DNA of 63,558 nucleotides, the filler included, from Rozella allomycis CSF55 (Eukaryota): assembly GCA_000442015.1 (NCBI GenBank). It is 17 parts of 17 records of this genome, joined end to end, with 100 filler letters (N's around TTAATTAATTAA, not from the genome) between each part and the next. Parts side by side here need not be neighbours in the genome. Positions count along the whole stretch, not along the records: positions 29,720 to 38,004 come from KE560680.1; 16 more parts are not named here. One strand, written 5' to 3'. A program made the translations under genes and the position numbers. Positions 7,704 to 50,898 of this stretch are shown piece by piece. The notes under the pieces are model-generated. The model saw only the letters and a program-made list of their open reading frames with translations. It ran no database searches and was not told where the DNA came from. Numbering within the stretch: the stretch's first letter is position 1; the number at the start of each line of letters is the position of its first letter.

Positions 7704-8810
7704 ATGCTAAAGTCTCTATTGGCTTTTTCCCTCCTCCCCTTCCTTCAATGCGTTCCCATAGATCCTACTCCGCGCAATGTCGTCAACCAAATGCCACCAA
7801 ATCTCAAAGTTGCATTTTTTGGCGATACGGGCATCGGTATCAAATACGAGAAGCTACTAAAAATGCTCAAAAAGAAAAATGTGGAAGCAATAGTGCATCA
7901 AGGAGATTTCGACTATATGGACAATCCAGTCCTATTTGATACAAAAATCAGCCAAATTCTCGGGCCTAATTTCCCATACTTTGCCAGCATCGGCAACCAC
8001 GATACGCTGGCTTGGGAGGGTCCCAAAGGATACAGGGCGATGTTTGAGAAAAGATTGAAAAGAGTCAAGGACAAATTAGGCAAGAAAGTTGTGTCCTGCG
8101 AGGGCGAGTTTGGAGTCAACGCTATTTGCAATTACAAGGGGCTTGTTATAGGATTATCAGGTGTTGGAACATACGGGACACACCATGCAGAGTATATGGA
8201 CCATGCATTGAAAACGTTTACCAGTCCATGGAAGATTTGCTCGTTTCACAAGAACCAGAGATTATTCCAGATAGGAACCAAAAAGGATGAAACAGGTTAC
8301 GAGATTTATGAGACTTGTAGAAGACACGGCGCGCTGGTTGTAACTGGTCATTTGCATCAGTACGCTCGAACACATATGATGAAGAGCTATGTCAACCATG
8401 AGATTGCAGAGAAGCGTGGATTAATGGTTCTGTCACCTGGCAGATCATTGAATATTCTTAATGGAATTGGAGGAAAGAGTATTTCAAAGGGAAACAGTAC
8501 ATTGATAGCGAATCCATGGTGGGCAACTGTTCTGGATAAAGATACAAATGTAAATGCAGCTGCTTTAATATGTACTTTTAATATCAATGGTGATAATCGC
8601 AGAGCTGGATGCCAGCTGATGGATCTAAATGGCAACATCTGGGATGAATTCCGTCTATTATCAAACGTTCACATTCTACCTCCCATATCAAAAAATGCTA
8701 TTACCAATGAAGAAGACTGCTCTCAAGATGGTTCCACAAAAACAATTGTGATGCCAGATTCCAATGTCTCATTGAGCAGCATCTTGAAAGCATTTTTCCC
8801 GTTTCCCTAA
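7704..8810 (+). CDS. Secreted calcineurin-like metallophosphoesterase
   Basis: Signal peptide; metal-binding motifs GDTG, GDFDY, GNHD and GHLH; intronless. Confidence 0.85.
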   Translation: MLKSLLAFSLLPFLQCVPIDPTPRNVVNQMPPNLKVAFFGDTGIGIKYEKLLKMLKKKNVEAIVHQGDFDYMDNPVLFDTKISQILGPNFPYFASIGNHDTLAWEGPKGYRAMFEKRLKRVKDKLGKKVVSCEGEFGVNAICNYKGLVIGLSGVGTYGTHHAEYMDHALKTFTSPWKICSFHKNQRLFQIGTKKDETGYEIYETCRRHGALVVTGHLHQYARTHMMKSYVNHEIAEKRGLMVLSPGRSLNILNGIGGKSISKGNSTLIANPWWATVLDKDTNVNAAALICTFNINGDNRRAGCQLMDLNGNIWDEFRLLSNVHILPPISKNAITNEEDCSQDGSTKTIVMPDSNVSLSSILKAFFPFP

Positions 8811-8932: not shown

Positions 8933-10228
8933 ATGACCAGAAAACGCAAGCCAAGTACCCCACCTGCATCAAAAGAGCCTAAACCAACATCATCGTATAT
9001 TTTAAAATACCGTCCGGTGCATACCAAGGTTTCCCATTCCCTATTGTCACCCGACGCTCCCTCTCCAAACTTCCGAGGCTTCATCAATTTAATGATTCTA
9101 GTTTTATTCGTAGCGAATGCGCGCCTGGTTATAGAAAACTTTATAAAGTACGGGTCATTGATTGGCATGCCTGGCCGCAACATTTCCGGGCGAGATTACG
9201 TGGTGACTATAAATGTTGTGGTGTATTTGGTTTTTAGTGGTCTTTTGTCGTTTGTTTTTGAAAAAGTGGCGGTTAGGGTGCGGATTGGATGGTTGATTGC
9301 GGTGAATTGTTTGGGGATGCTGGTGGTGCCGATGTTTGTTGTGTGGAGTATGGTTGAACATGCTGGATTGGGGATATTCGTGTTGATGTTTTCGTTGACG
9401 CTGTTTATGAAGCTGGTTTCTTATCATTTGGTGAACAATGAGTGTAGAATGATACGGGACAAGAAGATTGATGGTGAAATGGGCTATCCGGATAATATCA
9501 ATGTGAAGAATTTTATAGATTTTATATGTGTGCCTACGTTGTGTTATCAGTTGGAGTATCCCAGGACTGATAGGGTGAGAAAAGGGTATGTTTTGAGAAG
9601 GGTTGTAGAGTTAATCTCATCCTTGTTGATGATTCATTTTCTGTTGGAGCAGTATGCCACGCCAACAGTGCAGAATTCACTGAAGCCGATGGTTGAGAAG
9701 AATGTGCCTATGATAATAGAGAGATTGTTGAAGCTGTCACTGTCTAGTTTGTATATATGGTTGTTGATGTTTTATTCATTTTTTCATTGTTATTTGGGGA
9801 TATTTGCAGAGCTTACGAGGTTTGGCGATAGAGAATTCTATTTGGATTGGTGGAATGCGAGGGATGTTGGGACATATTGGCGACAATGGAATATACCAGT
9901 GCATAGTTGGTTGAAGAGACATATGTATTTGCCGTTGAGGAGGAGAGGGATTAGTGGGATTATGTGCCAAATAGTTGTGTTTCTGGTGTCGTCGTTGTTG
10001 CATGAGATAGCGGTTGGGATACCGACACATGTGATACAGGGATGGGCGTTTATGGGGATGATAATACAAATACCTTTGATAATGATAACAGATATGATAC
10101 AGAGAATAAGGCCAGAGAGTCATTTAGGCAATTATATATTTTGGATGTCGTTTGTGATACTTGGACAGCCCATGTGTGTGTTGTTGTATTATAGAGGATG
10201 GTATGTAAAGAATGAGTTGATTAATTAA
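8933..10228 (+). CDS. DGAT1: MBOAT diacylglycerol/sterol O-acyltransferase (DGAT1-like)
   Basis: HSLLS..AP..NFRGFINL, PTLCYQLEYPRT, FGDREFYLDWWN and catalytic HE motif. Confidence 0.88.
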   Translation: MTRKRKPSTPPASKEPKPTSSYILKYRPVHTKVSHSLLSPDAPSPNFRGFINLMILVLFVANARLVIENFIKYGSLIGMPGRNISGRDYVVTINVVVYLVFSGLLSFVFEKVAVRVRIGWLIAVNCLGMLVVPMFVVWSMVEHAGLGIFVLMFSLTLFMKLVSYHLVNNECRMIRDKKIDGEMGYPDNINVKNFIDFICVPTLCYQLEYPRTDRVRKGYVLRRVVELISSLLMIHFLLEQYATPTVQNSLKPMVEKNVPMIIERLLKLSLSSLYIWLLMFYSFFHCYLGIFAELTRFGDREFYLDWWNARDVGTYWRQWNIPVHSWLKRHMYLPLRRRGISGIMCQIVVFLVSSLLHEIAVGIPTHVIQGWAFMGMIIQIPLIMITDMIQRIRPESHLGNYIFWMSFVILGQPMCVLLYYRGWYVKNELIN

Positions 10229-18168: not shown

Positions 18169-18823
18169 TTAACCGTTGATTGTACAATCCATTGGCATTG
18201 GCCGTTTAGTAAAGTCGGGCATATAGGTTTTTTCCTTTACTTCTCCCATCAAAGTATCTTTCATTCCGGCTATACCTATTTTGAATATCACTTACGCTCT
18301 AGTGGCTTTTCTTCAGCCTGTGGAAAATCAATAACAGCGCCAGTATCTAATGAGATCCTCACGCGTTTAACCTGCCCGCTTTCTGGATCTTGGATGCATT
18401 TGTTAATAGCTTCACATGCCTTCCCAGTTAAGGGGTCAACAAGAGCAATTTGGCGCGCATAATATGGCCAATTCAAATTTATATGTGAAATATGAACAGC
18501 TTTTTCGTCTTTTGGTTTTGGCAAAAGCCTTCTTTGCAAATTGAAGCCAGAAATAGTGACTTGATTGTATGTCCTCAAAATATCTGTAACAATTCCATGG
18601 CGGCCCTTGTTTTTTCCGTGAAGAATTTCAACCTATTTGTTAAATTGTCAAGTTTTACCTATATGATACAATAAAACATATTTACCACGTCGCCCTTTGC
18701 AAATAGCCATTCATTGTCTGGAATTTCTGGGCCAGCGCGAACTCTATGTCTTCTAACAAACCTATTGAATTGATATGTGAATGGCCTGATTTTGTATAAC
18801 TTTTTAGTTATGGTGGCCCCCAT
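18169..18823 (-). CDS. MRPL24: Mitochondrial ribosomal protein uL24m (MRPL24/Mrpl40)
   Basis: Spliced KOW motif W.FAKGDV|VEILHGKNKGRHGIV, then HISHI..IALVDP..G and RVRISLDTGAVI. Introns 18633-18685 (compound) and 18270-18295. Start codon uncertain. Confidence 0.85.
18633..18685 (-). other. Compound intron of two abutting mini-introns (27+26 nt)
   Basis: GTAAATATGTTTTATTGTATCATATAG|GTAAAACTTGACAATTTAACAAATAG; both must go to restore the KOW motif. Confidence 0.85.
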
Positions 18824-19117: not shown

Positions 19118-22100
19118 ATGAGCTTGACAATTTGGTGTAATATTGATTTTGAGGGTAAACTAGGCACGGGTAATGTAAAAGAAACAAATTCCTTTATTAT
19201 TGAAGAACTCAATAAAAAGATGCCGTTTAAAAATATGTCATGGAAGTCAACTTTAAGCACACTTTCTCTTGGCCACCGAAACTGGACAAATAATGAATCT
19301 CTTGACGTCCACTTTACAGAAGAGCGGACTTTAGCAAATTCTATTCCTGTTGACTCAACGTATCCTGTGTACTCACAAAGTCATCCAATATGCCATATTT
19401 ATGTTATCGACTGTGATGTAATAAAACTTGATTATTACGAGTAGGATGTAGACATATATAAAAATCAATTGAAGAATCAAATCAAGGGATGGGTTGGTAG
19501 AAAGAATGACCATGTGATTGTACACTTTTCGAGGACTGAAGCATCACGAAACAAGTTTAATTTGAGATTTGGGGTTTTGGATAAACTAAAGTCTGATTTT
19601 AACGATAAAAGAGACAGATGTGTGCAAATCAGACAATTGGAGTTGTTGGATAGTGAGATGTGGTCTGAAGTGATGAAGAGACTGAGTGAATTAATTTTGG
19701 CTTGTTTTGGTTTTTATATAATGAATATGGAAGATGAAGTGAAAAAGATTGAGGCGCAAAAAAGTCTTCCGGGGTGGAATTTCTGTTCGTATTTTTCAGT
19801 GAAAGAATCGATGGCGTTAAATTATATTTCAATGAAAATGTTTGATGAATCTTTAATTATTTATGAAGAGCTAGATGCAATGTTGCAGTATTATATTAAT
19901 GACAAGGAATTTTGGTTGAAGACGTTTATGAAAAATGATTTTAAAGAAGAGGAGGATTTTAGCAAAACAAGAAATGAAATTTATGAATCTTCAATTTCTA
20001 TTTTCGATTTTCTTTCTTACGTCTTTAAAAGAAAACTTGAATTGTTTTTGCAAATGAAGGATTACAAACTTGTTTTCCTTCGATCAATTGAGTTTTTTCA
20101 AAGAATATTTCAAATTGCAAAAGAGAAGCTTTCAGAAACTTTTGTTTATTCTTGGATTTATTCTCAATGTATGAAGATTCTTGATAAAACAATGAAATGT
20201 GTTCTGGTCAGAGAACAGGAATTTGCTAAATCAACTTTTCTGTTTTATTCTTTGAGAATTTTAGAATCGATTGGTTCTTTACTCGGCTATCTCCCAAAAG
20301 GGAAGAATTTGTTGTGTTGCCGTGAACCAGGGTCAGTCATCCTGATTAAGCTTTCAGAAGAAGTAATTGGGGAATTACGAAATAAATTGACAAACGACAA
20401 TAGTTCATTTGATTCTTTATATTTGGTAAATTTATCGTATTAAATTGAAAGGATTTAATTCAAATGATTGTCAAAAGTGCCAATTTATGCGGTAGACAAA
20501 GGTTGGAGAACTTGGCATTGAATAATTTATCCTATTTGCATGCGATTAGAGATAATCATAAAGAATCAATAAAAATTTATGATGAATTAAAGAATTACTA
20601 TTTGAAACAAGGTTGGTATTCTTTGGAAAGCGACATTTTAATAAAATTGGCTAGAAACTTGAAGAGTAATTCTGAATTTTCAAAGTAACGCTTTTATTGA
20701 TGAGGTAAAAGATACGCGAGCACTTGCATTTCTTTGATCAGTAAAACACAATATTTAATGAATGATGCGATTCATTATTTTACTAAAGAATTGATAGACA
20801 TTGCTCATTCAATTTCAAATGGTATTTTATTATATAAATTTTAAAAAGATGTTTATTCAGAATTTAAAGTTTTTCAAATCAAGAGTTTCAAAAAGGATTC
20901 ATTGGACACTTTTGATGAATTCCTTTATTTTGACATTTCCATTGTTAATCTTTTGCCTTTTGTAATAAAATATAAAATAAATTTAAAAGAATGTTCCATT
21001 TGATAGCATCGTCCTGGTTTTGCTCGGGACTGAAAATGAATTGATTTTTAAAAGTCAAGGCGGATTAGACCCTGGCGAAAACAATTTAACTTTAAAATGT
21101 CCAGACATTTCTCTAGTAGGAAATTACGTTTTGGAAAAAATAACACTTTCATTGGGAAAAATTCATTTCAGCTACAATTTTCTATTACATGGGTCTAAAG
21201 TGATTTTTCAGCGCACAATTCCAAAATGGTTTCTTAATGTTCAAGTCACTCTTCCTACTGAAATAAATTTGGATGATTCGCCTTCTTGCAGATGGATCAT
21301 CAGCCAGTTCAATGAACCTTTAAAAGAACTGACTTTCTCTATATTAAACGATGTTGACATTTTCCANACTTTCTATGTTGACATTTTCCAAAGCGAAATT
21401 ATTTCAAAATCAAACTCTATTGAAAGAAAATTAAGTCTGATTGATGGGAAAGTAGTTTTAGGTGATTTTGAAGCAGGATCACAAATCTACTTTGACACTT
21501 TTTACAATAAAGGTTTGCCGCCAATTTTAAATCAAGTAAATTTCATTAATAAATTTGAAAGGTGAAAGTGGATGTTTCTTTTATCAACAGCCATGGGGCT
21601 AAAACCACTACTATAAATTACTTTGATCTCGAACCATTCTATCCAATTAATTTAAACCTTTCATACTATTTTTCATCAAAGTCGTACGTCAATCTTCAAT
21701 TACTCATTCAAGATTGATGTTGGAATATCAAATAGAAAATATAAGCAACGATACATTGATAATTGAATCAACTGACGCTGAAACAGCAATAGATATTAAA
21801 ACTGATTATTTCAAAGATTCATTAGTAAACAATGTTAATTTCTCATAAAGATTATTCCTTCAAAAAGCTCTTCTACCCTTGGATTGCTCATTTCAAACGT
21901 GAATGACAAACCTTGTTCTGAATGGCTTCCAAACAACGTAAAGTTGAAATTTAAAGTTTCAAATATTAAAATTCAAATATCAAACGCTCTGGACGAAATT
22001 ATCAAACAATTTAGAAACAAGCCAGAATATCATTGGCTACGATTAAAGTTCAATGAAATATTAGCCACCAATTACCTCGAAGATTATTTTCTACATCACG

Positions 22101-24632: not shown

Positions 24633-25480
24633 TGCTTACGATTATTTGTGCAGTAATTGTTAACTTCCAAATTTACCCTTGTCTCATGCGTCAACCATTT
24701 TAAAAGAGCCTTCACAATTTTTGTGGACTATGGATGGAAAGTTCTAATCTCATGGACCGTGTGACACAATACATTGAAAACTTTAGTGAGAATAATGATG
24801 AATTTAGTGATTCTATGTGTCAGGCGGCTACCTCGTGCAAAGAAAAATTGGAAAACTACTATGATGTGACCAGTGATGGATGTACAGTTGCAACAGTACT
24901 TGATCCCCGTTTGAAATTGGAATATTATAAAGCCTTTGAAAACCAGGAAGGCCACACAAACTCTCTAGAAATTAAGCAAAAGGTTCAAAATATGTATGAG
25001 GCCAGAGGCCAAGTACGCGGCAACGCACGACTCCGCGGCTGCGCCTGCTACTAAAGCGACAGGCTTTGTCCAATCTATTTTCAAGAAGCGTAAAATTACT
25101 CCACAATCGGAACTGGACGAGTATCTTAACCAGCCCACCGTGGATGCAACCATTCAACCCCTCAATTGGTGGAAGTCAAATGAACTTATGTTTCCTACAT
25201 TATCTAAAATGGCGAAAGATTATCTTGCCATACCAGGTACATCAGCTTCGTCTGAACGTTTGTTTTCATCTGGCCGCCAGCTTATCACTGACTTTCGCTG
25301 TTCATTGAGCCCCGCTACTATTCAAGCATGCATGTGCCTTAAGGGATGGCTCAAAGCCGAAAAACATGAAGAAAAAAATTAAAAAAGATAATAAATATAC
25401 GAAATTTTACATATTAGGTATTTGATAACAATTTGCAAATAATTTGGACCTTTTGAAACTATTTGCAAATCAAATACAAA
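24633..25480 (+). mobile_element. hAT DNA transposon, 3' part; transposase frameshifted
   Basis: ATVLDPRLKL and hAT dimerisation domain ELDEYL..PLNWWK..FPTLSKMAKDYLAIPGTSASSERLFS. Subterminal ATTTGCAAAT palindromes at 25431 and 25461. Confidence 0.9.
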
Positions 25481-27451: not shown

Positions 27452-27551
27452 NNNNNNNNNNNNNNNNNNNNNNNNNNNNNNNNNNNNNNNNNNNNTTAAT
27501 TAATTAANNNNNNNNNNNNNNNNNNNNNNNNNNNNNNNNNNNNNNNNNNNN

Positions 27552-28880
27552 GGACACTTTATCAATTCAAATTCATGCCAATCATTCAACATTTTTTCAA
27601 TTTCAAAATTTATAGGTTTAGTTATCATGGAATGATTGCTACTTAAAATGTTTCCATCAATAGTTTCAATTTGATGCTTAATTGGTCTGACATTATAGGC
27701 TATATTATGTTGTCTAGCAAATTCAAGATCCATAAATGAATGAGATGCTCCAGAATCAATCAGTGCTTCGACTTTAAATTTATCGGTGGATAAAATAACA
27801 GTAAAATGCTCATTGTCTTCCAAATGATTTGATGAAGAAAGAAGATAATCAGAATTATGTTTTATATCACTACGAGAATTATTAGAGCAATTACGCGCAA
27901 TATGTCCACTTTGGCGACATTTAAAGCATCTACCCTCCTTCCTACAACGTTCACGCTCTTCCATGGTAAGTTTCGTCAACTTTCGAGTGGCATCTAAGAT
28001 CATTGGCGTTGTATCATCAGATATTGTCACTGTGTCGCGACACATTTCATCACGATGTTTTCGCTCATCAATCTTCATTATCAAATCATAAAATTCCGAA
28101 ATAGTCTCGAGTTCATCAAAATACTTCAAATGGGTCTTAACATCGTTATTGACAGCTTGATATACGAACGCTTTGATTGCCTCATCATTGAAACCAGACA
28201 TTGGTGCTAACCGCTGAAATTCTGCAATAGTTGCCGCCACAGAACGTTTGCCTTGCCTAATGTTCATGATTTCCCTCTCTGCGGTGATCTTGTTCTCCTT
28301 TAACCCAAATTGACGCTTTAGTTTGCTTTGAAATTCTTCAAAAGAACCACTCACTTCATTTGTAATCCAATAAGAATCTAACCATTTAGCAGCTGACCCA
28401 CGTAAGTATGAAGCCGCGAAAATTACTTTCAACCTATCGGACGTGAACTTTTCTTTTTGCGCTTCAAAAACAAAGTTGATCTGACGGATAAATGAAGGTA
28501 ACTTTTTGGAATCCCCAGTAAAAAAGTCTGGATCGGCCACTTTGATATTTCCCTTTCCCGAGTACCTTTGATCAAGCACGCCTGCTACTTGTTCTAATTG
28601 CTGAGATGACAACCGTGGTGCTGGTAAGTCCGTGCCTTCCGGGTTCTGTGTTTTCAAGTAATCTTGTAGTTCTGGTGAAATATTCATGGGAGATTAGTCT
28701 TGTTAAAGTATAAAGAAATAACTTAAGAAAAGACTTTTGTTAACTGAGTTAACAAGACTGAAGTCTTGTTTCCTCCACTTTATTTATAAGATAATACTTT
28801 AGCTTCCATCATCTAGAATCTCTGGAGTGATCTTCGGAAATCTCAAAGATACTTTCTTGGATCTCAAACAATTCTTTACA
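27552..28880 (-). mobile_element. Ty3/gypsy LTR retrotransposon, 5' part: LTR, gag, zinc knuckle, protease
   Basis: ORF from 28687: PDFFTGD..LRGSAAKW capsid, PMILD, CFKCRQSGHIARNC knuckle and ALIDSGAS protease in one frame. Confidence 0.92.
28701..28880 (-). repeat. Putative 180-bp 5' LTR
   Basis: Minus strand TGTAAAGA...ACTTTAACA termini, TATAAATA at 28788-28781, gag ATG 14 nt after the LTR end. The second LTR is not in the window. Confidence 0.65.
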
Positions 28881-29000: not shown

Positions 29001-29776
29001 CAAAAAAGGGTAATCTATTAAAGCTTGGGCTAGAAAACTAATCTAGAGCCAAAAAAGATTTTCTTTAAATCGCCAACCGGACGGGAAGTTTATAATTGTT
29101 GACAAATTTCTTCACACAAAACCACTGTTTTGTATCTTTATCATTTTTTGACATAAGTTGAAAAATTGTCAGGGCTTGCACCCATGTTTGAGGTTATTAT
29201 AACTGAAATTTTTTTTCTCCAAGGGTGTAATGTAAACCTTATCGAATCATCTGTATCATCTGCATCTGATAGAGTCTATCTCCAAAGCCTATGTTGACCA
29301 TATAAGAAGAGCTTCCTGGGAGCTTACCCAGGTTATTTATCATAAATAACNATTTTATACCTTCGTTTTAAATTATAGTATAAATAACCTAACAACGCGC
29401 AAATGTCTGAAAACACTCACGAATCAATGTTACGTGATATAAAAAGTAAGCAGGATGATAAAGATGTGACTACATCGATTTTAACTCAGACCAGAGACAA
29501 AGATGAGAAGAAAAAGTCATCGACAGAAGTATTATGTTAATACAAGGGTATTCGCTTACTGTTATAAAAGGCACCCATGTAATTTTTTTTTCTTCACTTC
29601 CTTTAAAATCTTTAGACTTNNNNNNNNNNNNNNNNNNNNNNNNNNNNNNNNNNNNNNNNNNNNTTAATTAATTAANNNNNNNNNNNNNNNNNNNNNNNNN
29701 NNNNNNNNNNNNNNNNNNNAAAAAAGTAACAATAATAACAAATAACTTTATTAATAATTATTGTGATGAAATAAAT

Positions 29777-32700
29777 TTATTCGTATTGGGATAAATCCAG
29801 TGTGAGGATGGCAGAACCATTAACTTCTTGATTACGATATACACCAACAAGAGAGTCGGCCTTTTCATATAATTGCCTCTTTAAAGAAATAACGATAAAC
29901 TGAGGTGATTTGTGATCTAATTTAATCTCATTAGAAAATCCTTACCATTTATGTCATTGTTCTCTCCATCTACTTCATTTTCTCCATTCCCTTCTCCAAC
30001 TTGTTCATCACTCACTCCCCTATTTCTTTGTTGTTTATTGTTTGATAGATTCCTTAGATATCTAGCCACTTTGGCAACATTAGAGTTGTCTAAAGCAGCG
30101 TCAACTTCATCTAGAACAAAAAACGGAGAAGGTTTAAAGTTTTGAATAGAAAACAAGAGAGCCAAAGCCGCGACTGTTTTCTCACCACCCGAGAGATCAT
30201 CAATGTCTCTGAATCTCTTTGTGGGAGGAGTTACATTGAATTTGACACCAGAGAGATAAGGTTCCTATTTGATGTGATGAGAGGAAAGATTACGTCTAAA
30301 TCTTGAAGTGACAGAGAAGCTGAACCACCTAGAGGAAAGTTTTGTGATTTTGTTAATTCCTTGTAAATGTGATCAATTGAATCTTGTAGCACTGTAAAGC
30401 AACTCATAAAAGCCTTAAACCTTGAGTTAAAAATAATTGAAGAGATTACCTAATTAAGACTTTAAATACTATTGATTACCTAGTTTAACCCCTATAATCA
30501 TTGATTACCTAGATTATTACTTTAAATACTATTGATTACCTAGTTTAACTCCTATAACCATTTGATTACCTAGTTTAACCCTCATAACCATTGATTACCT
30601 AGTTTAATCCCTATAACCATTTGATTACCTGGATTGTTGAATAATTGAAAATTCTTGTTTGATAGATTTAGCATTCTTTCTAGCCAATTCAAAAGAATCA
30701 TTTGATTTCTTGAATTGATTTTGAAATTCATTAAATTTGTTTAAAGCTTTTAAATTTGGTGATATTTTTTCTAAATCATTTTGTAGAGATTTTAATTTTT
30801 CTTGAAATTCAATTTCTTTAGTTTCAGTTGAATTAATTTTAGAATTGTTGTCAAGTTTAGAGAAATCTAAGATTGCATTTCCATTAATTAAAGATCCAGA
30901 TGTTATGGGAATTTTTATTTGTTGAGAAGCGCATTTAATCAAGACAGATTTCTTTTCTTCTACTAGTCTTTCTAATAGAGCTTCTCTTGATGTTTTGTTC
31001 TTTATACTTGTTTCATAGTTTGTTAATAATCTGTGAACTAGTTTTTTCTTCTTGTTGAATTCTTCTTGAATGTTTTCATATTCTTCTTGGAATTCATTCA
31101 ATTTATTCAAATTTTCATCCAAATTGATTTGTGAAATTTCCTTTTCTTTTTCAATTTTATTTAAATTTTTATTCTTCAATTCTAAATCATTTTCCAAATC
31201 ATTAATTGATTTCTTCAACTCTTCAAATCTTTTATAAAAATCATTCATCAAATTATTTTCAAACTTTAAATCTGACGAGACCTTTTTATAGGTAGGGTTA
31301 ATAATTTACCTATTATATAGGTAGGGATACTATTGTTACCTATAGTATAGATTGACTTTAACTGCTTACCTATCGTTAATCATACCTTCACTATGTTACC
31401 TATTGTTAACTTTTACCCCTTTTGCTTACCTTTGATTTTAATTGATTTAGTTCAAATAGTTTAATCTCTTTTTGCTTCACTTCTAGATCAATATAATCTC
31501 TAATATTTTCAATCTTCAATCTCTCACAAAAACTTTTAAATATTTCATCTTGTTTTAAAAACAAAGATTTCTGAATCTTTTTAAATTCATTTACAATTCT
31601 ATTCAATTCTTTATTTTTAAATTCTTCTTCATTCATCAATTCATTTATATTTTTATTCAACAAATTTAATTCATTTTCCAACAATTTAATCTTTCCTTCC
31701 AAATTGTTTATTTCTTGTTCAACATACACCAACTTTGATTGTAGATTAGCTATTTGATTATACATGGGTTCTAAATAACTAACCTTTTTCTTTTCTCTTG
31801 ATATTTCATTCAAATTGGCTATCAATTCATTTCTCTCATTTTTCATTTCTTGTATATTTTGTTCATCCCATGTAGATCCATCAAAGCCACTAGATCCACC
31901 AGAGATCAACCCAGATTTATGGATCACTACTCCATCCAACGTAATCGATTTCACTCCAAGTCTTTTATTATAATTCACATCCTTTGCTATCTCCACATCA
32001 TCACAAATAACTGAATTGCCACACGCATACTGCACTGCTACATGGAATTTACTCTCACATCTGATAACATCAATCGCCAATCTACAGCCATCAAGATTTC
32101 TCAAACTTTCATTAATTGGTTTCACATAAAGTGAGTCCAATGGCAGAAATGTAGCTTGGCCTATTCTCTGTTCCTTTAAATAGTTCAAACATTCAACTGC
32201 TGTTTTTTCTGAATCCACCAATATTGAATTCAAATGTTTTCCAAGAACAATCCCACAAGCTACTTGATATGTTTTATTTATTGGTTTAACTGTTTCCTTT
32301 AATCTTCCATAGACGCCTTTTACAAAGTTAGTGATTAATTACCTATTAAATGACAAGTACGCTCTTTACCTATTAAATGAAGTAGTACGCGCTTTACCTA
32401 TTACATGATAAATACTCTACTTACCTATCACATTATAAATAAGTACACTATTTACCTATTGTTACATTTCAAACCTTTTAATTACCTGAATAAATTCTCT
32501 TCATGTTGCTGATCGCTTCATTCATTTTACTCTCCTTCAAACTAGTTTTAATATTAATTTTAGCTTCACTCAAATTCTCCAAGACTAAATTCAATCTCTC
32601 TTGATACTGAATCTCTTGCTCATTCAACGCAACTTTAATCTTTTTATTTTTCTCAATCTCATTCTCCAATTTATTTTTTTCTTCCAATAGATCTATTCTA

Positions 32701-34123
32701 TTTTTAGAATATTTTTCTCTTCTTATTCTCAGATTTGAAATTTCAGAATTAATCTTCTCTCTTCTTTCTTTCTTTTCATCTATTCCAATAAACTTTATTT
32801 CTTGTTTAATCAAATCTATTTTCTTATTCAACTTTTCCAATTCTTGTCTCTCGTTAAAGTTCATTTCATTTTCTTGTTTATTCAATTCATTAAATTCTCT
32901 TCTCTCTTGTTCATTCATATTCACTTTATCTATCTTTATTTCTTCAATCTCTAATTCTATCCTCTTAATCTCTTCTTCCCTCTCTTTAATCTTTTTCATC
33001 TTTTCTTCCTCTTCAATCTCCATCGCCTCCCTCTTCATTTCCAAATCTCTCTTCTTTTCATTCAAATATCTAATCTGCTCCTTAATCTTATTCTTTTCTG
33101 GTCTCTTTTCTTCAATCCTCTTTTCCTCTTCCTTTATACTCTTCTCCAATATCAACTTTTCTTTAAATATTCTGTTTTGATCCTTCTTCTTTTCCTTCAT
33201 TCCAACCTCCTCCCTCTCGTAACTCTCTTTATTCTTCTCCACTTGCTCTCCATGATACTCAATCTCCTCCTTCAACGACTCTACATTCTTCTCTATGTGA
33301 TACAACCGCCACAACAAATATTTTATCGTAATCTCATCCCGCTCCCTCTCCAACTCTGCATACCTCTCCGCCTCTTCCTTCTGCTCCTGGTACTGCCGCA
33401 TCTCAACATTCATCCCCTTCCTCTTACTAAACGCAACTGTCGACTGCTCAGTCGCTCGCTCCATCTCCTCCTTCAATCTATCATACTCCTCCTTAAACTC
33501 AATCGACCTATAATCATCCCTCAACCCTCTTCTTACCCTGATATCTGCTCTATAAAGTTACTCAACTCTTTCGGATTCCTCTGCGCTATAGCCTCCACAT
33601 CCCCCTGGAACACCAAAAAGTTTCGCAACTTGACCAATATATTCTCCTTTTCCAACTCACCATTATACACCCCAGCTGAAACAACCTACGCTCTCTCAAT
33701 CACCTACTTACCTTGCCATCAATCCTATACTCACAATGCCCATTCAACTGAACCCTACAACTTTCAACAAACACCCTTACGATCGGCTAAACATCACACT
33801 CTCTCCCTCAAGCTCATACTCCATCTCAACAACAGCCTTGTGCGCATCCTTGCTCTTGTCGCCACACCGGTACACAAGCTCCTTCAACTGCTTCGACCGC
33901 AAATGCATCGCTTGCACCCCCAACACAAATGAAAGCGCATCCATTATATTCGATTTGCCTGTTTTCATCGCCAACGTATTTTACCTAGATATGATGATGA
34001 AATACATCCGCTACCTGATCCGTTTGGTCCTATAATACACGTAAAGTCGCTAAAGGGCCCGATCCGGTGTCGGCCGTTATAGGATTTGAAATTCTCTACA
34101 TACAAACTGTTCAAACGGCCCAT
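29777..34123 (-). CDS. SMC1: Cohesin subunit SMC1, 9 introns (4 compound)
   Basis: [29 protein letters not shown], hinge [41 protein letters not shown]. Introns 33959-34014, 33755-33780, 33686-33711, 33508-33536, 32317-32485, 31282-31429, 30421-30628, 30265-30293, 29917-29945. Confidence 0.96.
30421..30628 (-). other. SMC1 compound intron: 7 abutting mini-introns (30,29,30,31,29,30,29 nt)
   Basis: Each unit starts GTAATC and ends AG; six internal TAG|GTAATC junctions. Removal gives QQSR-FKAFM. Confidence 0.9.
31282..31429 (-). other. SMC1 compound intron: 5 abutting mini-introns (30,30,30,30,28 nt)
   Basis: Internal ATAG|GTAA junctions at exact 30-nt spacing. Removal gives [13 protein letters not shown]. 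Confidence 0.9.
32317..32485 (-). other. SMC1 compound intron: 6 abutting mini-introns (30,31,27,28,27,26 nt)
   Basis: Five internal ATAG|GTAA junctions. Removal gives hinge RIYSG-VYGRL. Confidence 0.9.
33959..34014 (-). other. SMC1 compound intron: 2 abutting mini-introns (30+26 nt) inside Walker A
   Basis: GTAGCGGATGTATTTCATCATCATATCTAG|GTAAAATACGTTGGCGATGAAAACAG; removal gives GPNGSGKSN. Confidence 0.88.
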
Positions 34124-34359
34124 TTTTAGGTTCACGAAAATTCAGAAATTAAATTTTATATACCTCGACAAAAAATATGGCCATGTATTTATTAATTAAC
34201 TGTGAGAGTTGTTAAGCGAAAGCGAGAAAAAACCTAAATATCAAATATCGAAACTTATTGTAACGTTAAACCTCGTGTTCTATATATACACATTCTGATC
34301 CCAAAATAGAATAAAACGTTCGGGAATCAGGAGGATCAAACAAAACACTCCTGTTTCAC

Positions 34360-35681
34360 ATGCTGCAAGTTCCCCTCCACCAGTTCATCGACCCGAATTT
34401 CCACCCCGATCCCTCCGAATGCATAATCGCAACCATCCNGCGATACTTTTAAGGAAAGCCAAAGAATCTACGTCGAATTTCCACCCCGATCCCTCCGAAT
34501 GCATAATCGCAACCATCCTGCCATGCAGCCCGCCCATGGAAATCAAGCGGGTGTACTGGTACTCTACGTGGTTCATCAGCTGCAACGACATTACTAAATA
34601 CGTCGCATTCTGCTACATCCAGCAAACAGGCAATTCAATTCACAACATGCACAAGTTCGACGAAGGCGTGTTCAGCGATTTGAGACAGTACAAGATTGGC
34701 GTGCATGCTGTCATGGAGGAAAACAGGTCGGAATTCTTGTCGTTTTTGCTAAAGACTGGGTGTGTGAAGACTCAGAAGAAGCAAAAGGTTTACATTTGGG
34801 ATAAGATTAATCTGGATTTGCTGGTGCAAGACGCTACTATGCGGGAGTTGAGGAGAGGCAGTGGGTCGTCGGCTAGTAATAGGAAACGGAAGTCTGTTGG
34901 GTCCATCATGCTGAATACAAACATGTCGCCCTATGGATATACAGAACAGTTTATTCTTCCTTTTGAACCGGCATTTAGTGAAACGACAGACGGGACAATG
35001 CCATTGACACCCATTACACCTCTAGGGACAATATACGAAGCCCCACAAATGGACCAACAGAACAGCGAGCCGCCAAGTATTGACATATCTCAACTATTTG
35101 CAATGGAAGGTCAATTCACTCCGTACGCATCACAAACTGCTCCACTTTCTTCTTTACCTCCATCTCTATTAACATCCACATCAGAGTTTTTTGATCAAGG
35201 TTTGCTCCTTCCGCCTCCATATTCTCCAAGCACGCTATACACCTTTGATGAATTTCCCGCAAGAAGACCGCAAAATCGTAGACATTCAACCACCTCTCTT
35301 CCAGACTGGTCAAAAGGATCAGGCGATCGACCATATAAATGCCTAGTGCCTGGCTGCTTTCGCGAATTCAAACGTATGGAGCACTTAAAACGCCACGGTA
35401 GAATACATACTGGGGAGAGGCCGTTTTCATGCAACTTTCCAGGCTGCAACAAGTACTTTTCGAGATCGGATAACTTGGCTCTGCATCAGAAAACTCATGA
35501 GAGAAAGGGTTTGGAGTTGATTGAGGAAACCAATTTGCACTTTAACAACAATGTAAATCTGCCAATGAGCAGCAAGGTCGATGTAACCTTTTTTGACTCT
35601 GCTACCGATCTTCCTTTACTTGATTCTCTAGAGATCAAAGATAAAGGCAGTTCTCCTATAATTAACGCGCCAATTTGGTAA
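34360..35681 (+). CDS. STE12: Ste12-like transcription factor (STE domain plus two C2H2 zinc fingers)
   Basis: [29 protein letters not shown] and [27 protein letters not shown]. The 5' end is blurred by the assembly overlap at n34439. Confidence 0.88.
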
Positions 35682-35814
35682 GCTTCCTGATTTGTAAATA
35701 AAAAATATTGGTATATAAGTATTTTTATATCATTAAAAGATTGTATCAAGTGATTTGGGATAAAAAGAGACCAGTTCAATAGAAATTGTAGCCCATAGGT
35801 ATAAAACGGGATTT

Positions 35815-35856
35815 ATCGGACGGGGAGTTTACGACCCGGACATCAGAAACGATTAT
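35815..35856 (+). repeat. Dispersed copy of the 40-bp repeat at 15875
   Basis: ATCGGACGGGGAGTTTACGACCCGGACATCAGAAACGATTAT, next to an assembly break (n35863). Confidence 0.85.
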
Positions 35857-36142
35857 TGGCATNACCGTTGTAATTCTCATAAGTAATTATATCTCCATCT
35901 TCATCCTTCGTATTTCTCAGTTTATGCAGAAGTTTTTGGTTTTTTGGTGCCAACCATCGTTCGAAGTTCTCTTGTAGACTCATTTGTTGACAGGGGTATT
36001 GTAATGTAAACCTTATCCCTTTGACACCCAACTTGGCTTGCGATGAGCTGTTAATATAGTGTAATTATTATTGCTAAATACACTCTTGATTTCACTATTC
36101 AACAAAGAATAAAGTTCCTCCAAATCCTGATCACTTGGTACA

Positions 36143-36535
36143 TCAAATGGAACATATTCTTTTGAAATGCAATTCAAAGGAAGACGAGATCAAAATCAAA
36201 AATGACTTGACATATTGCTCATTAGTTTTCACTTCACACATCATTGGATACAAGTAATTTTTTGATTGATACTCTTGGATTGTCCATTCTAACATTGGAT
36301 CACTCTTTCTATGTTTGTAGCTTGAAACAAAACGAATGACAATTGCCTTTGACTCTCTTTTTTTGCACGCGGTATCAAATATCGCCTCATAAATGCCTTT
36401 TGCGATATCAAGCGCTTCGGTAGTTAAATCGACAGTTTCATCATCAAAATAACTGCAACTGCTATCACTTGGGATTTCACACCCATTGTAATCGGAGTCG
36501 TAGCCTAACATGCGTATGTTTGTTCTTCTATCCAA
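36143..36535 (-). pseudogene. Copy 1 of a duplicated ORF segment shared with the D5-like fragment
   Basis: About 36151-36457 is near-identical to about 37110-37416 (KKRESKAIVIRFV.SYKHRKSDPMLEWTIQEYQSKNY.YPMMCEV). Confidence 0.6.
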
Positions 36536-36579
36536 AATTTGTAAGTTTCAGGATCGAATTAAAAATAGTTTATTTATGC

Positions 36580-36845
36580 AAATACAATTCCTCTTTTCAT
36601 TCAAAGCACGATGTCTAGTAAGCCTGATTACGTCTTGAAGCATATTTTTAATGTGGTACTATTTTATTATTTACTATTTACTTACTTCAAGGCCTACATA
36701 CATCGCATTGACGCAATCATCGCTAACACCTCCAGGTACATCGTTATCGACAGCCAAAAATGCCAATTTTCGTTTCAGCTCTTCTTTCGTTCCCATATTA
36801 TTTTCAAATGACATAAAATGGAGATTATCTGGCTTTAGGATATCT
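36580..36845 (-). pseudogene. TADA1: Fragment of SAGA subunit Ada1/TADA1 histone-fold region, intron-containing
   Basis: Spliced translation SFENNMGTKEELKRKLAFLAVDNDVPGGVSDDCVNAMYVGLE|YHIKNMLQDVIRLTR with a 27-nt intron at 36659-36685. Not in the ORF track. Confidence 0.65.
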
Positions 36846-36968
36846 TTCAAAATAAAATAATCTACATACTCGATTTAGTTGACATTGGTGATACCGAAGA
36901 TTCGCTAAAGGAATGATGCTACCTAAACCAATACGGTGATTCTGATAAAACGGGAGTTTGCTGTGATT

Positions 36969-37417
36969 CTAGTACTTTCGAACTACAATAGAAGAAGGAA
37001 CATTCTTGAATGCGGTGAATTGTAAGGATTCGATATTCAATACGCCATTGGCAAAACCAATAAAGGATTTATCGGTTTGTAGAAATTTGAACTTGGAAGA
37101 TGCATCATGGACATGCTCTTTTGAAATGCAATTCAACGGCAAGACCAGATCAAAGTTAAAAAATGCCTTGAAATATTGCTCATTATTATACACTTCACAC
37201 ATCATTGGATAAAAGTAATTTTTTGATTGATATTCTTGGATTGTCCATTCTAGCATTGGATCACTCTTTCTATGTTTGTAGCTTGGAACAAAACGAATGA
37301 CAATTGCCTTTGACTCTCTTTTTTTTGCACGCGGTATCAAATATCGCCTCATAAATGCCTTTTGCGATATCAAGCGCTTCGGTAGTAATCGACAGTTTCA
37401 TCATCAAAATAACTGCN
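36969..37417 (-). pseudogene. D5-like primase/helicase N-terminal fragment (virus/Polinton-type), frameshifted
   Basis: FKFLQTDKSFIGFANGVLNIESLQFTAF resembles the D5_N F-x-N-G-V-x-(D/N) motif. Indels relative to copy 1. Confidence 0.5.
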
Positions 37418-38104
37418 CAGATTTTTCGAATGTCAAGTTAGAATAAGGCAGGATATATCTTCTTAGTAATTCATGAATTACTTAGAAGATATATCCATTT
37501 GTAAACTTCTCCAGTGCCTTGAACTCTCACATAGCCATTCTCACAATCCTCCATGTGTTCAACTAGTACAACAAAAGGTTTTCTTTTGGTTTCTGTGTTG
37601 CTTCTTTTTAGAACAATAGATTCAAAGACGTTAAGAATCCTCTTTTCTCTTGCTTTGTCTATTCTTCCTCCACTGTGAGAGAAGCAACTGTAACTACTGT
37701 GCCTTGCTTATTATTAACATAGATACAGATGTGATCNGATCTTCAATTGATTCGTAATTTCTTTTCTTAGCAATAATCTTTCTGGCAGCCTCTGCGGCCT
37801 TGGCACCTTTCAAAAGATTCTTGAAATGAGTGATTGAGGTGTTGTTAACATTGATCAAGGGAGAAGCAGCGGGGTNAATCTTCAATTGATTCATATTTTC
37901 TTTTCTTAGCAATAATCTCTCTGGCAGCCTTTGCAGCGTTGGCACCTTTCAAAAGATTCTTCAGATGAGTGATTGAGGTGTTGTTAACATTGATCAAGGG
38001 AGAANNNNNNNNNNNNNNNNNNNNNNNNNNNNNNNNNNNNNNNNNNNNTTAATTAATTAANNNNNNNNNNNNNNNNNNNNNNNNNNNNNNNNNNNNNNNN
38101 NNNN

Positions 38105-45534: not shown

Positions 45535-47049
45535 TGTGAAAATGAAGGAATTCACTGGGGCAATCTTTTTCCATAGCTTCCAGCAAACTGTGAAACCATT
45601 CAAATGCCTAATCAATGTTTAAAAATACAATTAATTACATTTTTGTCCCTGCATATCCACACAAAATGCAATGTTTGAAGCTTGGTATTGTCTTTTATAT
45701 TTCTGGTTTTCCTATACCAAATGTGTTTTAACACAGAAGCGAATGGTGTCACTCCAATACCTGCGCCTACGATCAAAGCTGAATCATATTGAAAAACGTC
45801 TTCTGTGGGTGTTCCATAGGGTCCGTCAACGTATATTTTCGGTAAGTACCATCCATTGTATGTCTTGACTTGGTCTTTCTTCTTGAAGCAGCCCAGTCTA
45901 TTAGCAAGTGCACTGGTCCAATCTCCGCAAACCCGTATATGAACTGAATGATGATCGTCTTCGGGGCATGATGAAAGTGTAAACGGATGCCATTGATACT
46001 TTGATATTTCAGGGATACAGATAAACACATATTGTCCAGGTTTATATGAAAATGAGGGCTTTTGAAATTGCAATTCAATTACTTTGCTTGGATGTTCAAT
46101 TATTTTAGAAATGTATGTGAGCCTACGTGCCCTGACTTCTCTTAATCCCCTTTCGATCAAAAACAAAATAAATCCTGCAAGTGCATATTTCCAGGTAAAG
46201 TAACCTTTACAAACTCGCTCTTCTGTTCTTACAAAACATCCAATTCCGTGCAGGAACACCAATATTGACCAAACAATTGCCAAATGATGTGTATAGTAGA
46301 AAATCTCAAACTTTTTTCTTCTGATTTGGAACATGGCACCAGTAAACATTAAAAGCTGGATGATCNACCAATTCCGTGCAGGAACACCAATATCGACCAA
46401 ACAATTGCCAAATGGTGTGTATAGTAAAAAATCTCAAACTTTTTTCTTCTGATTTGGAACATGGCACCAGTAAACATTAAAAGCTGGATGATCAATAGTA
46501 ATAATCCAGTAACGCCTGCTGGATGTTGAAAGAGTATGTAATAAGGAGAAAACCAGCCAAGATTCTGCAATGTACGTAGATTCAACATATGACCACATGT
46601 ATGAACTACAGAAAAGAAGCTGATCATGTAACCGACTTGGCGATGGAAGAACAAGTTGCTGTCGACTGGCACGATTTTGTTGATGAACGAAGACCTAACG
46701 TGAGAAAGCAAATTACGGCATATGGGGAAGAATATCATTATCGTACCGACATGTAAATTGTTTNGCCGACTTGGCGATGGAAGAATAAATTGCTGTCGAC
46801 TGGCACTATTTTGTTGATGAACGAAGACCTAACGTGAGAAAGCAAAATGCGGCATATGGGGAAGAATATCATTATCGTACCGACATGTAAATTGTTTGCA
46901 CTACCACGACTTATCCATACAGTCCACCCAAGTGGGTTGTTCAGTCTATTCAGTTCCGTGTCGTTCTTCTGGTTGAAAAAGCCTTGCATAAATATCAATA
47001 CATTGAACGCAATCCAAAGAATCCAAAATATGACTGTAGAGAGCTGCAT
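45535..47049 (-). CDS. NADPH oxidase catalytic subunit (gp91phox/NoxA-B type), 3' truncated
   Basis: Heme histidines FFHRQVG..VVHT and YYTHHL..LHG; WHPFTLSS, DGPYG, VGAGIGVTPF. Broken by overlap artefacts at n46366 and n46765. Confidence 0.9.
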
Positions 47050-47163
47050 GACCTTTGTTATTGTTATTGTTTACATTCATTTCGTTTACGATTTTGAATT
47101 ATTCCGGAAAAGGGAATATTGAGCATTATAAATACAGGTCGCTTCAGGGCATCAAAATAAACA

Positions 47164-48122
47164 ATGCGCGTTGCCTTCCTTAGTCTTCTAACAATTATTG
47201 CCGCACAGAATACTACTCAAGTCGACTTTTGCACAGCAAGTGGTCAAGCATTAATGGATGGTACACAAAATCGCGGAGGATCGTGCTCAAATACGATTCA
47301 AGGAGTAATTTGATATTTTAAATAGGATTATAGTCATTACCGGATGTAACGAAAATGGTGTCTACTATCATTTTATCGCCATCAAACGGTGATCGAATTG
47401 AAGAGGGGACNTGCACAGAATACTACTCAAGTCGACTTTTGTGCAGCTAGTGGCCAAGTTTTAATGGACGGTACACAAAATCGCGGAGGATCATGCTCAA
47501 ATACGATTCAAGGAGTAATCTGATAATTTAAATAGGATTATAGTCATTACCGGATATAACGAAAATGGTTTCTACTATCATTTTATCGCCATCAAACGGT
47601 GATCGAATTGAAGAGGGGACGCCCTTTGTCATTAGTGTCAAGACTGTCAATTTGCAATTGGGATTCTTTGATAATCCACAGACAGAATATTATTTAAGTC
47701 CACAGACCTTGAATAGTAACGGAATCATTGAAGGTCACCAACATGTTGTTGTCCAAGCATTGACAGACGGTACGGTACCACCCAGCGCACAGGACTTCAA
47801 ATTCTTTAAAGGCTTAAACGGTGAATCTGCTGACGGTGTTCTTAGCGTTAATGTAACGGAAGGTATTGCTGGAGTTGGATCTCACAGAATATGCACAATC
47901 ACTGGGTCAAGAGGACATCAGCCAGTTTTAATGCCAGTCGCACAAAGAGGATCACAAGATGATTGCATTAGAATTGAAATCGTAAAGAAGAAGAATGGAA
48001 AGGGAGGAAAAGGATTCAATAATGTTGCTGAAGACGTTACCGAAGGTGAACTTGAAAGAGTGCGACATGGTCGTAGAAGAGAAGGAAGAAGAAGGTTTAG
48101 AGACAGAAGACACAGGGATTAA
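47164..48122 (+). CDS. Conserved fungal-type secreted Cys-containing protein of unknown function
   Basis: Signal peptide MRVAFLSLLTIIAA; DGTQNRGGSCS, GH.HVVVQ, FFKGLN, HQPVLMPVAQRGSQDDCIR. 5' part duplicated around n47411. Confidence 0.75.
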
Positions 48123-48981: not shown

Positions 48982-50798
48982 ATTATCTTCGTAAATATTG
49001 GTGGTTTCAGATTTGATGCCACGTTCTTTAAGCAGGTTTCTTGTCTATATTGCTTCTTGAGTTGCCAGTGATAGTGATACATATTCTGCTTCACAGCTTG
49101 AGAGTGCAACTGAGGCTTGTAGCTTACTGCACCAGTTTATACATGCGTCGCCTAGAAAAAAGCAATAACCACTTGTTGATCGTCTTGAGTCTAAGTCTCC
49201 GGCCCAATCAGCATCGGCATATCCACTAAGAGTCAAAGATGAACCACCCAACTTTAGTCCGTAATGTTTAGTGGCATTCAAATATTGTAGAACATGTTTC
49301 AGTGCAGTAAGATGTACAGTAGATGGCCCTTCTTGAAATCGACTAAGAATTCCAACAGCGTTCGCCAGGTCAGGTCTGGTACACATAGCTAAATGATGTA
49401 ACGTTCCAATAATGCTTCTGTAGGGAATATCATTAATTTGAGCTTTTATCGTTGCATTTTCTCTCTTTAAAATTACATTTGGATCCAACGGTGTTTTTAC
49501 AAATCTAGAATTTTCCATTTTTGTTTCCTTTAACAAGTGTTCAGCTAATCTGGATTGAGATAAATAAAGTCTTCTTTCTATTCTATTTCTTTGTACTTTT
49601 AATCCTAAGCAATGTTGAATGGGTCCCAGATCTGTGCTTTGGAATCGAGATGATATTTTTTTCTTTATATCTGAGGCAATATCTTTTGGAGCGGCGATAA
49701 TGATGTCATCTACATAAATACTTAAATAACAATTTAGTCCTGTATATAGACACGGATCTGCAATGGTTGGAGTAAGGCCAATAGAGATGAGGAATGTATG
49801 CAACTCTTCGTACCATACCCGGGGTGACTGACGTAAACCATAAAGAGCTTTGTTCAATTTGCAAACCATACCTGATTTATTATCATGTGCGACACCAGAG
49901 GGAATTTCCATATATACTTCTTCTTTGAGGGAAGGAATTAGAAATGCAGTTACTACGTCCATTTGTTCTATTTCGTAATCACGTGAAGCGGCAATAGAGA
50001 GCATAGTTCGCAGGGATTTATATTTTGCTACCGGCGCGTATGTCTCAGAGAAATCTTGACCCGGAACCTGTGAGTATCCTTTGGCAACAAGTCTCGCTTT
50101 GTATCTAGCAACAGAACCATCGGAATGTCTTTTGATTCGAAATACCCATCTGCATTTGACAATCTTGCGATTTGGAGGAGCTTCTTGGATTGACCATGTT
50201 TGATTTTCGTGGATGCTGGAAAGTTCGTTTTGTACTGCCTGATACCAAAGAGATGCGTCATGCCTACCTTCAATGTCTTTATAATCATTGGGGACATCGT
50301 CGTCAGCTTGTGCAAGTAATGCCTCATGATAGTTAATTGGTTTTCTGAACCGTTTCGTTTCGGGGGGCAAAATATTATCAACATGAATTTCAGAAGAATT
50401 TTGATTGACATTAGAAGTTCGTGGAGGGTCTTGAATAACGTTTGTATTTATAGGCGTGGAATTGATAAAGTTTGGATTGTTTAAAGTTTGATTGTTATTG
50501 ATAAGGTTTGGATTATCAAGATTCTCAACATTATAAATAGAGGCCTGATCAGAGTCGCTCAAAGATTGGAAAGCATCACTATGAATTTCATCTTGGTGTT
50601 CTTCCATTGGAAATATATTGTCTTGTGACATGAATACTGGTAATACTTGATTTTGAATATTAGAATTAGATATGGAACATTCTTTATAGAAAAACTCGGG
50701 AGGGTCACAGAAAGTAACATCACGACTTAAAGTTAATTTGTAGGTTTCCGGATCAACGGTTCTATATGCTTTACTTTGAATATCATATCCGGTAAAGA
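48982..50798 (-). mobile_element. Ty1/copia pol fragment (RT plus RNase H) with a nonsense codon
   Basis: CRWVF..K, YKARLVAKG, QMDVVTAFL, ALYGLRQSP, YVDD, YADADWAG. TAG at 49045-49047 replaces the usual Trp, and the frame continues TRNLLKE...IYEDN. Confidence 0.93.
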
Positions 50799-50898
50799 NN
50801 NNNNNNNNNNNNNNNNNNNNNNNNNNNNNNNNNNNNNNNNNNTTAATTAATTAANNNNNNNNNNNNNNNNNNNNNNNNNNNNNNNNNNNNNNNNNNNN

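Follow-up and report, generated by a model that had tools for sequence, protein, structure and literature searches.

Long introns in Rozella allomycis composed of abutting mini-introns: candidate tandem duplications of whole intron units

The longer introns established in a 63.6-kb window of the genome of Rozella allomycis CSF55 (positions 1-63558, the whole stretch of DNA analysed here) are chains of complete mini-introns, set head to tail. There are five of them, four in the gene for the cohesin subunit SMC1 (arrays A1 to A4) and one in a uL24/KOW-like gene (the uL24 array), and every one divides exactly into GT..AG units of 26-31 nucleotides (nt), with each internal 3' splice site immediately abutting the next 5' splice site; all 17 internal junctions read TAG/GTAA. 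This observation, which an original prediction had made by eye for introns of 208, 148, 169, 56 and 53 nt, is confirmed on both counts, exact division and junction sequence, and for the three long arrays it is far beyond chance; the prediction had been placed at 30421-34014, an interval outside which the 53-nt array lies. Our interpretation, to which we give a probability of about 0.62, is that the arrays are tandem-duplicated intron units, each of which would still be used as an intron, with zero-length exons between them, in an organism whose splicing would be poor beyond about 31 nt. The arrays and the structure of the SMC1 gene are set out in Table 1.

Table 1. Positions in the window of the intron arrays and of the SMC1 gene with its single introns
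Feature	Position	Strand	Description
Array A1	30421-30628	-	SMC1; 7 units, 30+29+30+31+29+30+29 = 208 nt; 6 TAG/GTAA junctions
Array A2	31282-31429	-	SMC1; 5 units, 30+30+30+30+28 = 148 nt; 4 TAG/GTAA junctions
Array A3	32317-32485	-	SMC1, just before the hinge domain; 6 units, 30+31+27+28+27+26 = 169 nt; 5 TAG/GTAA junctions
Array A4	33959-34014	-	SMC1; 2 units, 30+26 = 56 nt; one TAG/GTAA junction; splits Walker A motif GPNGSG/KSN
uL24 array	18633-18685	-	uL24/KOW-like gene, ATG at 18823; 2 units, 27+26 = 53 nt
SMC1 (cohesin subunit) gene	29777-34123	-	10 exons, 9 intron sites, 4 of them arrays; ATG at 34123, stop 29779-29777
SMC1 single intron	33755-33780	-	26 nt
SMC1 single intron	33686-33711	-	26 nt
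SMC1 single intron	33508-33536	-	29 nt
SMC1 single intron	30265-30293	-	29 nt
SMC1 single intron	29917-29945	-	29 nt; larger, different removal in the NCBI model

The units of the arrays have the size of the ordinary introns around them. We curated 42 single introns in the window by bridging open reading frames, and all are 26-31 nt long (26 nt in 14, 27 nt in 13, 28 nt in four, 29 nt in seven, 30 nt in three and 31 nt in one), which is the range that had been claimed for simple introns. Because lengths of 15-45 nt or 18-35 nt were allowed, so that the search reached 35-45 nt, the upper edge at 31 nt was not set by the search itself. All 42 have GT..AG ends and form the narrow length distribution, below about 35 nt, that characterises ultra-short intron genomes, at least within this window, and no unitary intron longer than 31 nt was established there. 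Among 40 singles that were profiled, about 88% have the donor GTAA, and the acceptors are TAG in 21, AAG in 16, GAG in two and CAG in one. Array units are spread over the same range (26 nt in three, 27 nt in three, 28 nt in two, 29 nt in three, 30 nt in nine and 31 nt in two, with a mode of 30). In SMC1, TRAPPC10 and V-ATPase G, where outside evidence supports the continuity of exons, every intron other than the arrays is a mini-intron; the support comes in TRAPPC10 from N- and C-terminal Pfam domains, and in V-ATPase G from a split Pfam match that is resolved by introns of 28 and 29 nt, one ending in TAG and the other in CAG. TRAPPC10 also contains a frame change at 21562-21720 (+), which is either a 32-nt GTC..AAG intron with an unusual donor (21681-21712) or a one-base assembly error in a run of T.

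The regularity of the arrays is not expected by chance. The junction sequence TAGGTAA occurs 21 times in the window against an expectation of 5.9, a count that none of 100 shuffles reached, and 17 of these 21 occurrences are array junctions; pairs at unit spacing (TAGGTAA-N19-24-TAGGTAA) occur 12 times against 0.01 expected. When the interiors of A1, A2 and A3 were shuffled, exact division into GT..AG units of 26-31 nt was obtained in none of 20000 trials for each array, so the internal junctions at unit spacing stand up to comparison with shuffled sequence, as had been anticipated. When the whole window was scanned for chained GTA..AG units of 24-33 nt, nine chains came out, five of which are the arrays; the other four are two-unit chains attributable to chance, of which two involve A2 (one antisense to it, the other off-register inside it), a third lies in an SMC1 exon and the fourth at 8655-8704. 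Internal units end in TAG throughout, the last unit ends in AAG in three arrays, and, in one departure from the original description, the first unit of A4 begins with GTAG instead of GTAA, which is an outer donor and not part of an internal junction.

The outer limits of the SMC1 arrays are fixed by homology, as judged from alignment of the translated sequence. The gene is identified by, among other things, an exon that is 98% identical to the NCBI protein of R. allomycis CSF55, and the spliced model yields 1208 amino acids without a stop, 1183 of which match the NCBI Rozella allomycis protein P0001. The two are identical across all four array junctions; elsewhere they differ in one intron start and in two minor choices of annotation. 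Over the four junctions, 14 SMC1 homologues from fungi and animals can be aligned without gaps, one of them being truncated at the first junction, where 13 are therefore informative, and the stretches concerned include the Walker A motif (GPNGSG/KSN) and the start of the hinge (..G/V(Y/H)GR.., which at A3 reads ...IYSG/VYGRL). The claim that conserved protein sequence fixes the array boundaries thus holds for SMC1 and is weaker for the uL24-like gene, whose Pfam matches to KOW and ribosomal_L24 fall below the Pfam cut-offs; on our own reading, a KOW-like stretch, KGDV/VEILHGKNKG, appears to run on across its array junction. The two annotation choices in SMC1 are that the public model excises an 18-nt in-frame piece (VNEFKK, 31594-31577, -) and a larger piece near the C-terminus (29945 region), and these two deviating removals, which lie outside the 26-31 nt rule, look like gene-prediction choices and not like real introns.

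The second line of evidence concerns selection on each unit. Across eight related unit pairs, which were chosen by the analyst and are only roughly independent, a weakness of the comparison, 44 of 187 aligned interior positions differ, as against 1 of 56 at the seven splice-site positions (Fisher p=5e-5), the sole splice-site difference being in an outer acceptor. This disparity speaks against a neutral minisatellite within an ordinary intron, in which all positions would diverge alike. Moreover, units whose interiors resemble one another no more than background still carry TAG/GTAA and a length of 26-31 nt, and the internal acceptors are TAG in 17 of 17 cases, compared with 21 of the 40 profiled singles. 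If two units were efficiently removed together, loss of the acceptor between them would be harmless and therefore expected, and so the retention of all 17 speaks against efficient two-unit removal; provided that selection maintains the internal sites, excision of more than one unit at a time must be inefficient. The arrays must also be removed completely, since none of the five lengths is a multiple of 3 and retention of units is almost always disruptive: 222 of the 224 possible combinations of retained SMC1 units lead to a premature stop, and the two stop-free combinations add 9-10 residues, in the case of A4 inside the Walker A motif.

Comparisons among units suggest how the arrays arose. 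Unrelated introns are 0.48 +/- 0.08 identical, with a maximum of 0.76, and against this background adjacent copies in the long arrays are often alike beyond their splice signals. In A1 the units follow the order A A A B A B, with identities of 0.86-0.91 among A-type and 0.88 among B-type units, before an unrelated last unit that ends in AAG and is 0.48-0.52 identical to the others, i.e., at background; Tandem Repeats Finder (TRF) accordingly reports periods of 29 and 59 nt, the latter being the two-unit repeat. Resemblance is less extensive in A3, where units 4-5 are 0.81, 3-5 are 0.70 and 2-3 are 0.67 identical, and in A2, where units 4-5 are 0.78 and units 1-2 are 0.60 identical and the rest are at background. 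Graded similarity of this kind within arrays fits repeated tandem duplication followed by divergence, as far as sequence comparison can tell. No unit in the window has a close match in another array or among the single introns (the best identities being 0.70 between arrays and 0.73 between a unit and a single intron), and there is consequently no sign in it of a dispersed mobile family.

We propose that an intron-sized unit would be copied head to tail through unequal exchange or replication slippage, and that such a duplication would be harmless because each copy brings its own 5' GTAA and 3' TAG, after which arrays could expand and their units diverge. Recognition of introns in Rozella would rest on GTAA, on WAG (where W is A or T) and on a spacing of 26-31 nt between them; each unit would be recognised and excised as an ordinary mini-intron, and the abutment of one unit's 3' site on the 5' site of the next would amount to a zero-length exon. 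Judged by sequence, removal of any unit leaves either ...AG/GTAA or exon/GTAA, which is to say that a usable 5' site is regenerated. With a usable junction restored at each excision, the units could be removed in any order and the end product would be the exact exon-exon join. Inefficient removal of multi-unit spans would in turn mean that intron length has an effective upper limit, lying somewhere between 31 and about 53 nt.

Several observations weigh against this account. Stepwise removal of units is inferred from the sequence. The sample is a single window made up of 18 small contigs, and four of its five arrays fall in one gene, arrays accounting for 4 of 9 intron sites in SMC1 and 1 of 38 elsewhere (Fisher p=0.003). 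Array units average 28.8 nt and single introns 27.4 nt (p=0.001), a difference of about 1.5 nt. The two-unit arrays are individually weak, exact division arising by chance in 4467 of 200000 shuffles (2.2%) for the 56-nt A4 and in 656 of 200000 (0.3%) for the 53-nt uL24 array; their units are also unlike each other beyond the splice signals, with identities of 0.39 in A4 and 0.50 in the uL24 array that are at background level, and duplication is therefore not established for either. No branch-site motif is clearly enriched, and none has a preferred position, in singles or units (TRAY is present in 23 of 42 singles, with a shuffle mean of 19.2, and in 15 of 22 units, with a shuffle mean of 10.4). 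A mini-intron path was lacking for 11 of 28 tested pairs of open reading frames. The fact that V-ATPase G is a separate gene explains two of these, and for a third there is no GT..AG path at any length up to 400 nt; the remaining eight, some of which involve transposon fragments or a gene end, may hold long unitary introns. Reading-frame logic alone is unable to exclude long introns, since chance provides almost any pair with a GT..AG path if lengths up to 400 nt are allowed. Finally, exons show no depletion of intron-like decoys that is specific to unit length: GTAA..WAG pairs of 26-31 nt within the sense strand of coding open reading frames (37.7 kb) number 23, against 30.6 +/- 5.2 in codon shuffles, 10.5% of which are as low, and neighbouring length bins behave similarly. 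About 14 of these decoys are independent, and their existence means that GTAA, WAG and spacing cannot be the whole recognition code. The suggestion that the spliceosome measures about 26-31 nt is thus only partly sustained, in that all established long introns are exact chains of units with their sites kept, while the decoy counts in exons show no dip at those lengths. One coding region deserves mention in this connection, a lysine- and serine-rich repeat with a 15-nt period at 4420-4549 (-), in which many intron-like GTAA..AAG strings lie inside the open reading frame and would be decoys for an intron finder that used length and motif.

The absence of a dip in the decoy counts speaks for an alternative in which the units are used as introns under no hard limit, the spliceosome preferring the nearest 3' site, with multi-unit jumps occurring and arrays persisting through frequent, nearly neutral duplication. 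Tolerance of flexible pairing is also hinted at by an off-register 29-nt GT..AG pair in A1, the use of which would, on our own reading, leave a hybrid unit of valid length. Such a regime would make loss of an internal 3' site harmless and expected, yet 17 of 17 internal acceptors are intact TAG, and unit lengths have not drifted outside 26-31 nt; we therefore regard it as unlikely. A related possibility dispenses with use of the units altogether, the arrays being ordinary long introns spliced in one step and the internal TAG/GTAA sites unused leftovers of recent tandem duplication, that is, an intronic minisatellite. TRF does find the units as tandem repeats, some of them, at 0.86-0.91 identity, must be young, and predicted RNA folding somewhat exceeds that of shuffled sequence in A1 (z=-2.4) and A4 (z=-2.5), so that sites far apart might be drawn close to each other. 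Folding is not significant in A2, A3 or the uL24 array, however, and repeats fold well for trivial reasons. The better preservation of splice sites than of interiors (1/56 against 44/187), the intact junctions and in-range lengths of units that retain only background similarity, and the failure to establish any unitary intron above 31 nt beside the 42 singles are all difficult to accommodate in this way, and we consider one-step removal very unlikely.

Duplication need not account for every unit. Some might have been inserted independently beside an existing intron, for instance through an excised intron reverse-splicing into an ...AG/G site or as a small mobile intron-like element, and this would suit the units of both two-unit arrays (A4 and uL24), the terminal units of A1 and A3 and a number of other units in A2 and A3, none of which is closer to its neighbours than to unrelated introns, as well as the AAG that ends the last unit of three arrays where all internal units end in TAG. 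Against this, the best identities between arrays (0.70) and between a unit and a single intron (0.73) are within the range of unrelated introns (maximum 0.76), so that no dispersed family is seen in the window, and the graded similarity inside arrays fits duplication and subsequent decay; independent insertion seems to us quite unlikely. That the arrays are artefacts of a fragmented draft assembly is scarcely credible. The contigs are small and linked by Ns, single Ns are scattered among them, and TRAPPC10 has one probable frameshift or odd intron, but the units of an array are diverged and not identical, the arrays sit exactly where their removal restores a conserved frame of 1208 amino acids, and the public gene model, although built on the same assembly, has the same outer boundaries. 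The reading that we prefer remains tandem duplication of intron units that would each still be spliced.

The structural features of these arrays have partial analogues in other organisms. In Drosophila, recursive splicing proceeds through zero-nucleotide exons, or ratchet points, which are few in number and separated by long stretches of very large introns (10.1101/006163). As at ratchet points, a 3' site in the Rozella arrays stands directly beside a 5' site within the intron, and the sequence suggests that a 5' site would be regenerated at each step; piecewise removal is known in Drosophila, whereas in Rozella it is a deduction from sequence. Unlike their Drosophila counterparts, the Rozella introns are only 53-208 nt long and wholly composed of units of 26-31 nt, each a complete intron, so that any order of removal would be possible; neither unusually long introns nor segments without intron-like character between the sites are found in the arrays. 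A further precedent is fission yeast, for which two cases of zero-length exons have been described, one of them in a 336-nt intron of SPNCRNA.445 (10.1101/226894). Here again the organism is a fungus with short introns, an internal 3' splice site runs straight into a 5' splice site and the intron is cleared in full; the fission yeast junction is conserved between species. The two cases are nonetheless isolated, each having a single internal junction, and they occur in a species that splices introns of many lengths; they involve no arrays or repeated units and no tie to an ultra-short length class such as we see in Rozella.

Ultra-short introns are themselves familiar from ciliates, microsporidia, dicyemids and myxozoans (PMC13644364, PMC5014332), and Rozella shares with them a very narrow length distribution below about 35 nt and GT..AG ends; we found no report of head-to-tail intron arrays from any of these four groups in the literature searched. 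Intron gain by tandem genomic duplication of a segment that contains AGGT is likewise an accepted route (PMC3443670, PMC4974935). In that process, tandem duplication also makes a new pair of splice sites, and the extra copy is spliced out with the coding sequence unchanged; the difference is that duplication of an exonic segment there creates one new intron, while in Rozella an existing intron appears to be repeated up to seven times.

Fungal stwintrons are a further case in which an inner intron interrupts a splice signal of an outer one and the order of splicing is forced. Stwintrons and Rozella arrays alike would need more than one splicing reaction to clear a single interruption of a fungal gene. 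A nested reading of the arrays was rejected, because the units abut without overlap or nesting and each array has an intact GTA.. donor and ..AG acceptor at its outer ends. For Rozella itself, the literature searched gave only two putative introns of about 30 nt in the S23 gene (PMC6349667) and a density of 2.5 introns per kb (PMC8476143). It yielded no account of mini-introns arrayed in tandem, nor of how intron lengths are distributed in Rozella, and an earlier mention in the Rozella genome paper or its supplements is possible. The assertion that nothing of the kind had been described at the scale of micro-introns accordingly survives for mini-intron arrays, and has to be qualified by the zero-length exons in the 336-nt intron of fission yeast (10.1101/226894). 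What appears to be new here is the arrays of abutting mini-introns; zero-length-exon splicing, ultra-short introns and duplication-driven intron gain were already known.

A scan of metagenomes for three junctions at unit spacing (TAGGTAA-N19-24-TAGGTAA-N19-24-TAGGTAA) matched at least 118 loci, and among the matches listed, which are not exhaustive, there was no convincing analogue of the arrays. Those left after filtering are low-complexity repeats of the GTAGGTAAG type, in-frame coding repeats and one minisatellite of an exon/5'-site boundary. The last, at 9500-10100 (+) of metagenome contig L034, repeats a ZIP-transporter-like exon end (HEIPHELG) and the adjoining 5' splice site about 12 times or more, in a 31-nt unit ending ..CTAG/GTAAGG; it resembles the Rozella arrays in form, except that its unit is an exon/intron boundary and not a whole intron.

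It is an open question how a spliceosome matches a 5' site with its proper 3' site, and another what determines the minimum and maximum lengths of introns; species whose introns are ultra-short lend themselves naturally to testing both. Mini-introns that abut in arrays would amount to an experiment of nature on these points, showing the internal sites to be under selection and the machinery to be barely able, or unable, to span two units. They would also provide a simple and testable route of intron multiplication, in which the intron itself is duplicated. As the intron-rich sister lineage of the microsporidia, which have almost no introns, Rozella has splicing rules that bear on intron loss in the microsporidian lineage. 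A practical consequence for annotation is that genes of this kind will be modelled wrongly by gene finders that do not permit zero-length exons or very short introns.

A bolder version of the proposal is possible, although we advance it tentatively and with more doubt than conviction. The Rozella spliceosome might have a real limit near 31 nt, such that introns throughout the genome could grow only by whole units, giving quantised lengths of about 27, 55, 84 nt and upwards, and would be cleared by repeated splicing across zero-length exons. Were this true, two spliceosomes could scarcely occupy neighbouring units of 28 nt together, mRNA maturation would be delayed by long arrays, and the four SMC1 arrays would act as a kinetic brake. 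That adjacent units are not processed simultaneously, and that long arrays are for this reason slow to clear, is speculation.

Some features of the window itself should be borne in mind. Its contigs are joined by linkers of the form N44-TTAATTAATTAA-N44, which are six-frame stop spacers (e.g. 29620-29719), and genes on either side of a linker are thus not genomic neighbours; scattered single Ns and one gap of 257 Ns (60718-60974) are also present. A crude Viterbi gene parser and open scans that bridged reading frames called an excess of long introns, which on inspection became mini-introns with short exons, or separate genes. TRF detected several two-copy tandem duplications of 128-210 nt and 93-96% identity at 46240-47620 and 37739-38004, which may be real or artefacts of assembly. 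Fragments of mobile elements occur in several of the small contigs, at 27500-28693 (-), 49045-50850 (-), 62802-63089 (-) and 24969-25379 (+), and their types comprise Ty3-type gag/protease, copia-type reverse transcriptase, a retroviral SH3-like domain and a hAT dimerisation domain. The sole match in an Rfam scan of the window at gathering threshold is a tRNA-His.

The contig that bears SMC1 occupies 29720-38004, between two N linkers, and on it the gene adjoins a Ste12-like transcription factor at 34299-35681 (+), with a STE domain (E=6e-29) and C2H2 zinc fingers. The 5' third of SMC1 (32000-34000) has a strong excess of G over C on its coding strand (GC skew -0.57 on the + strand), and its G+C content exceeds that of the A+T-rich 3' two-thirds; the single introns of this 5' third are also G-rich and contain almost no C.

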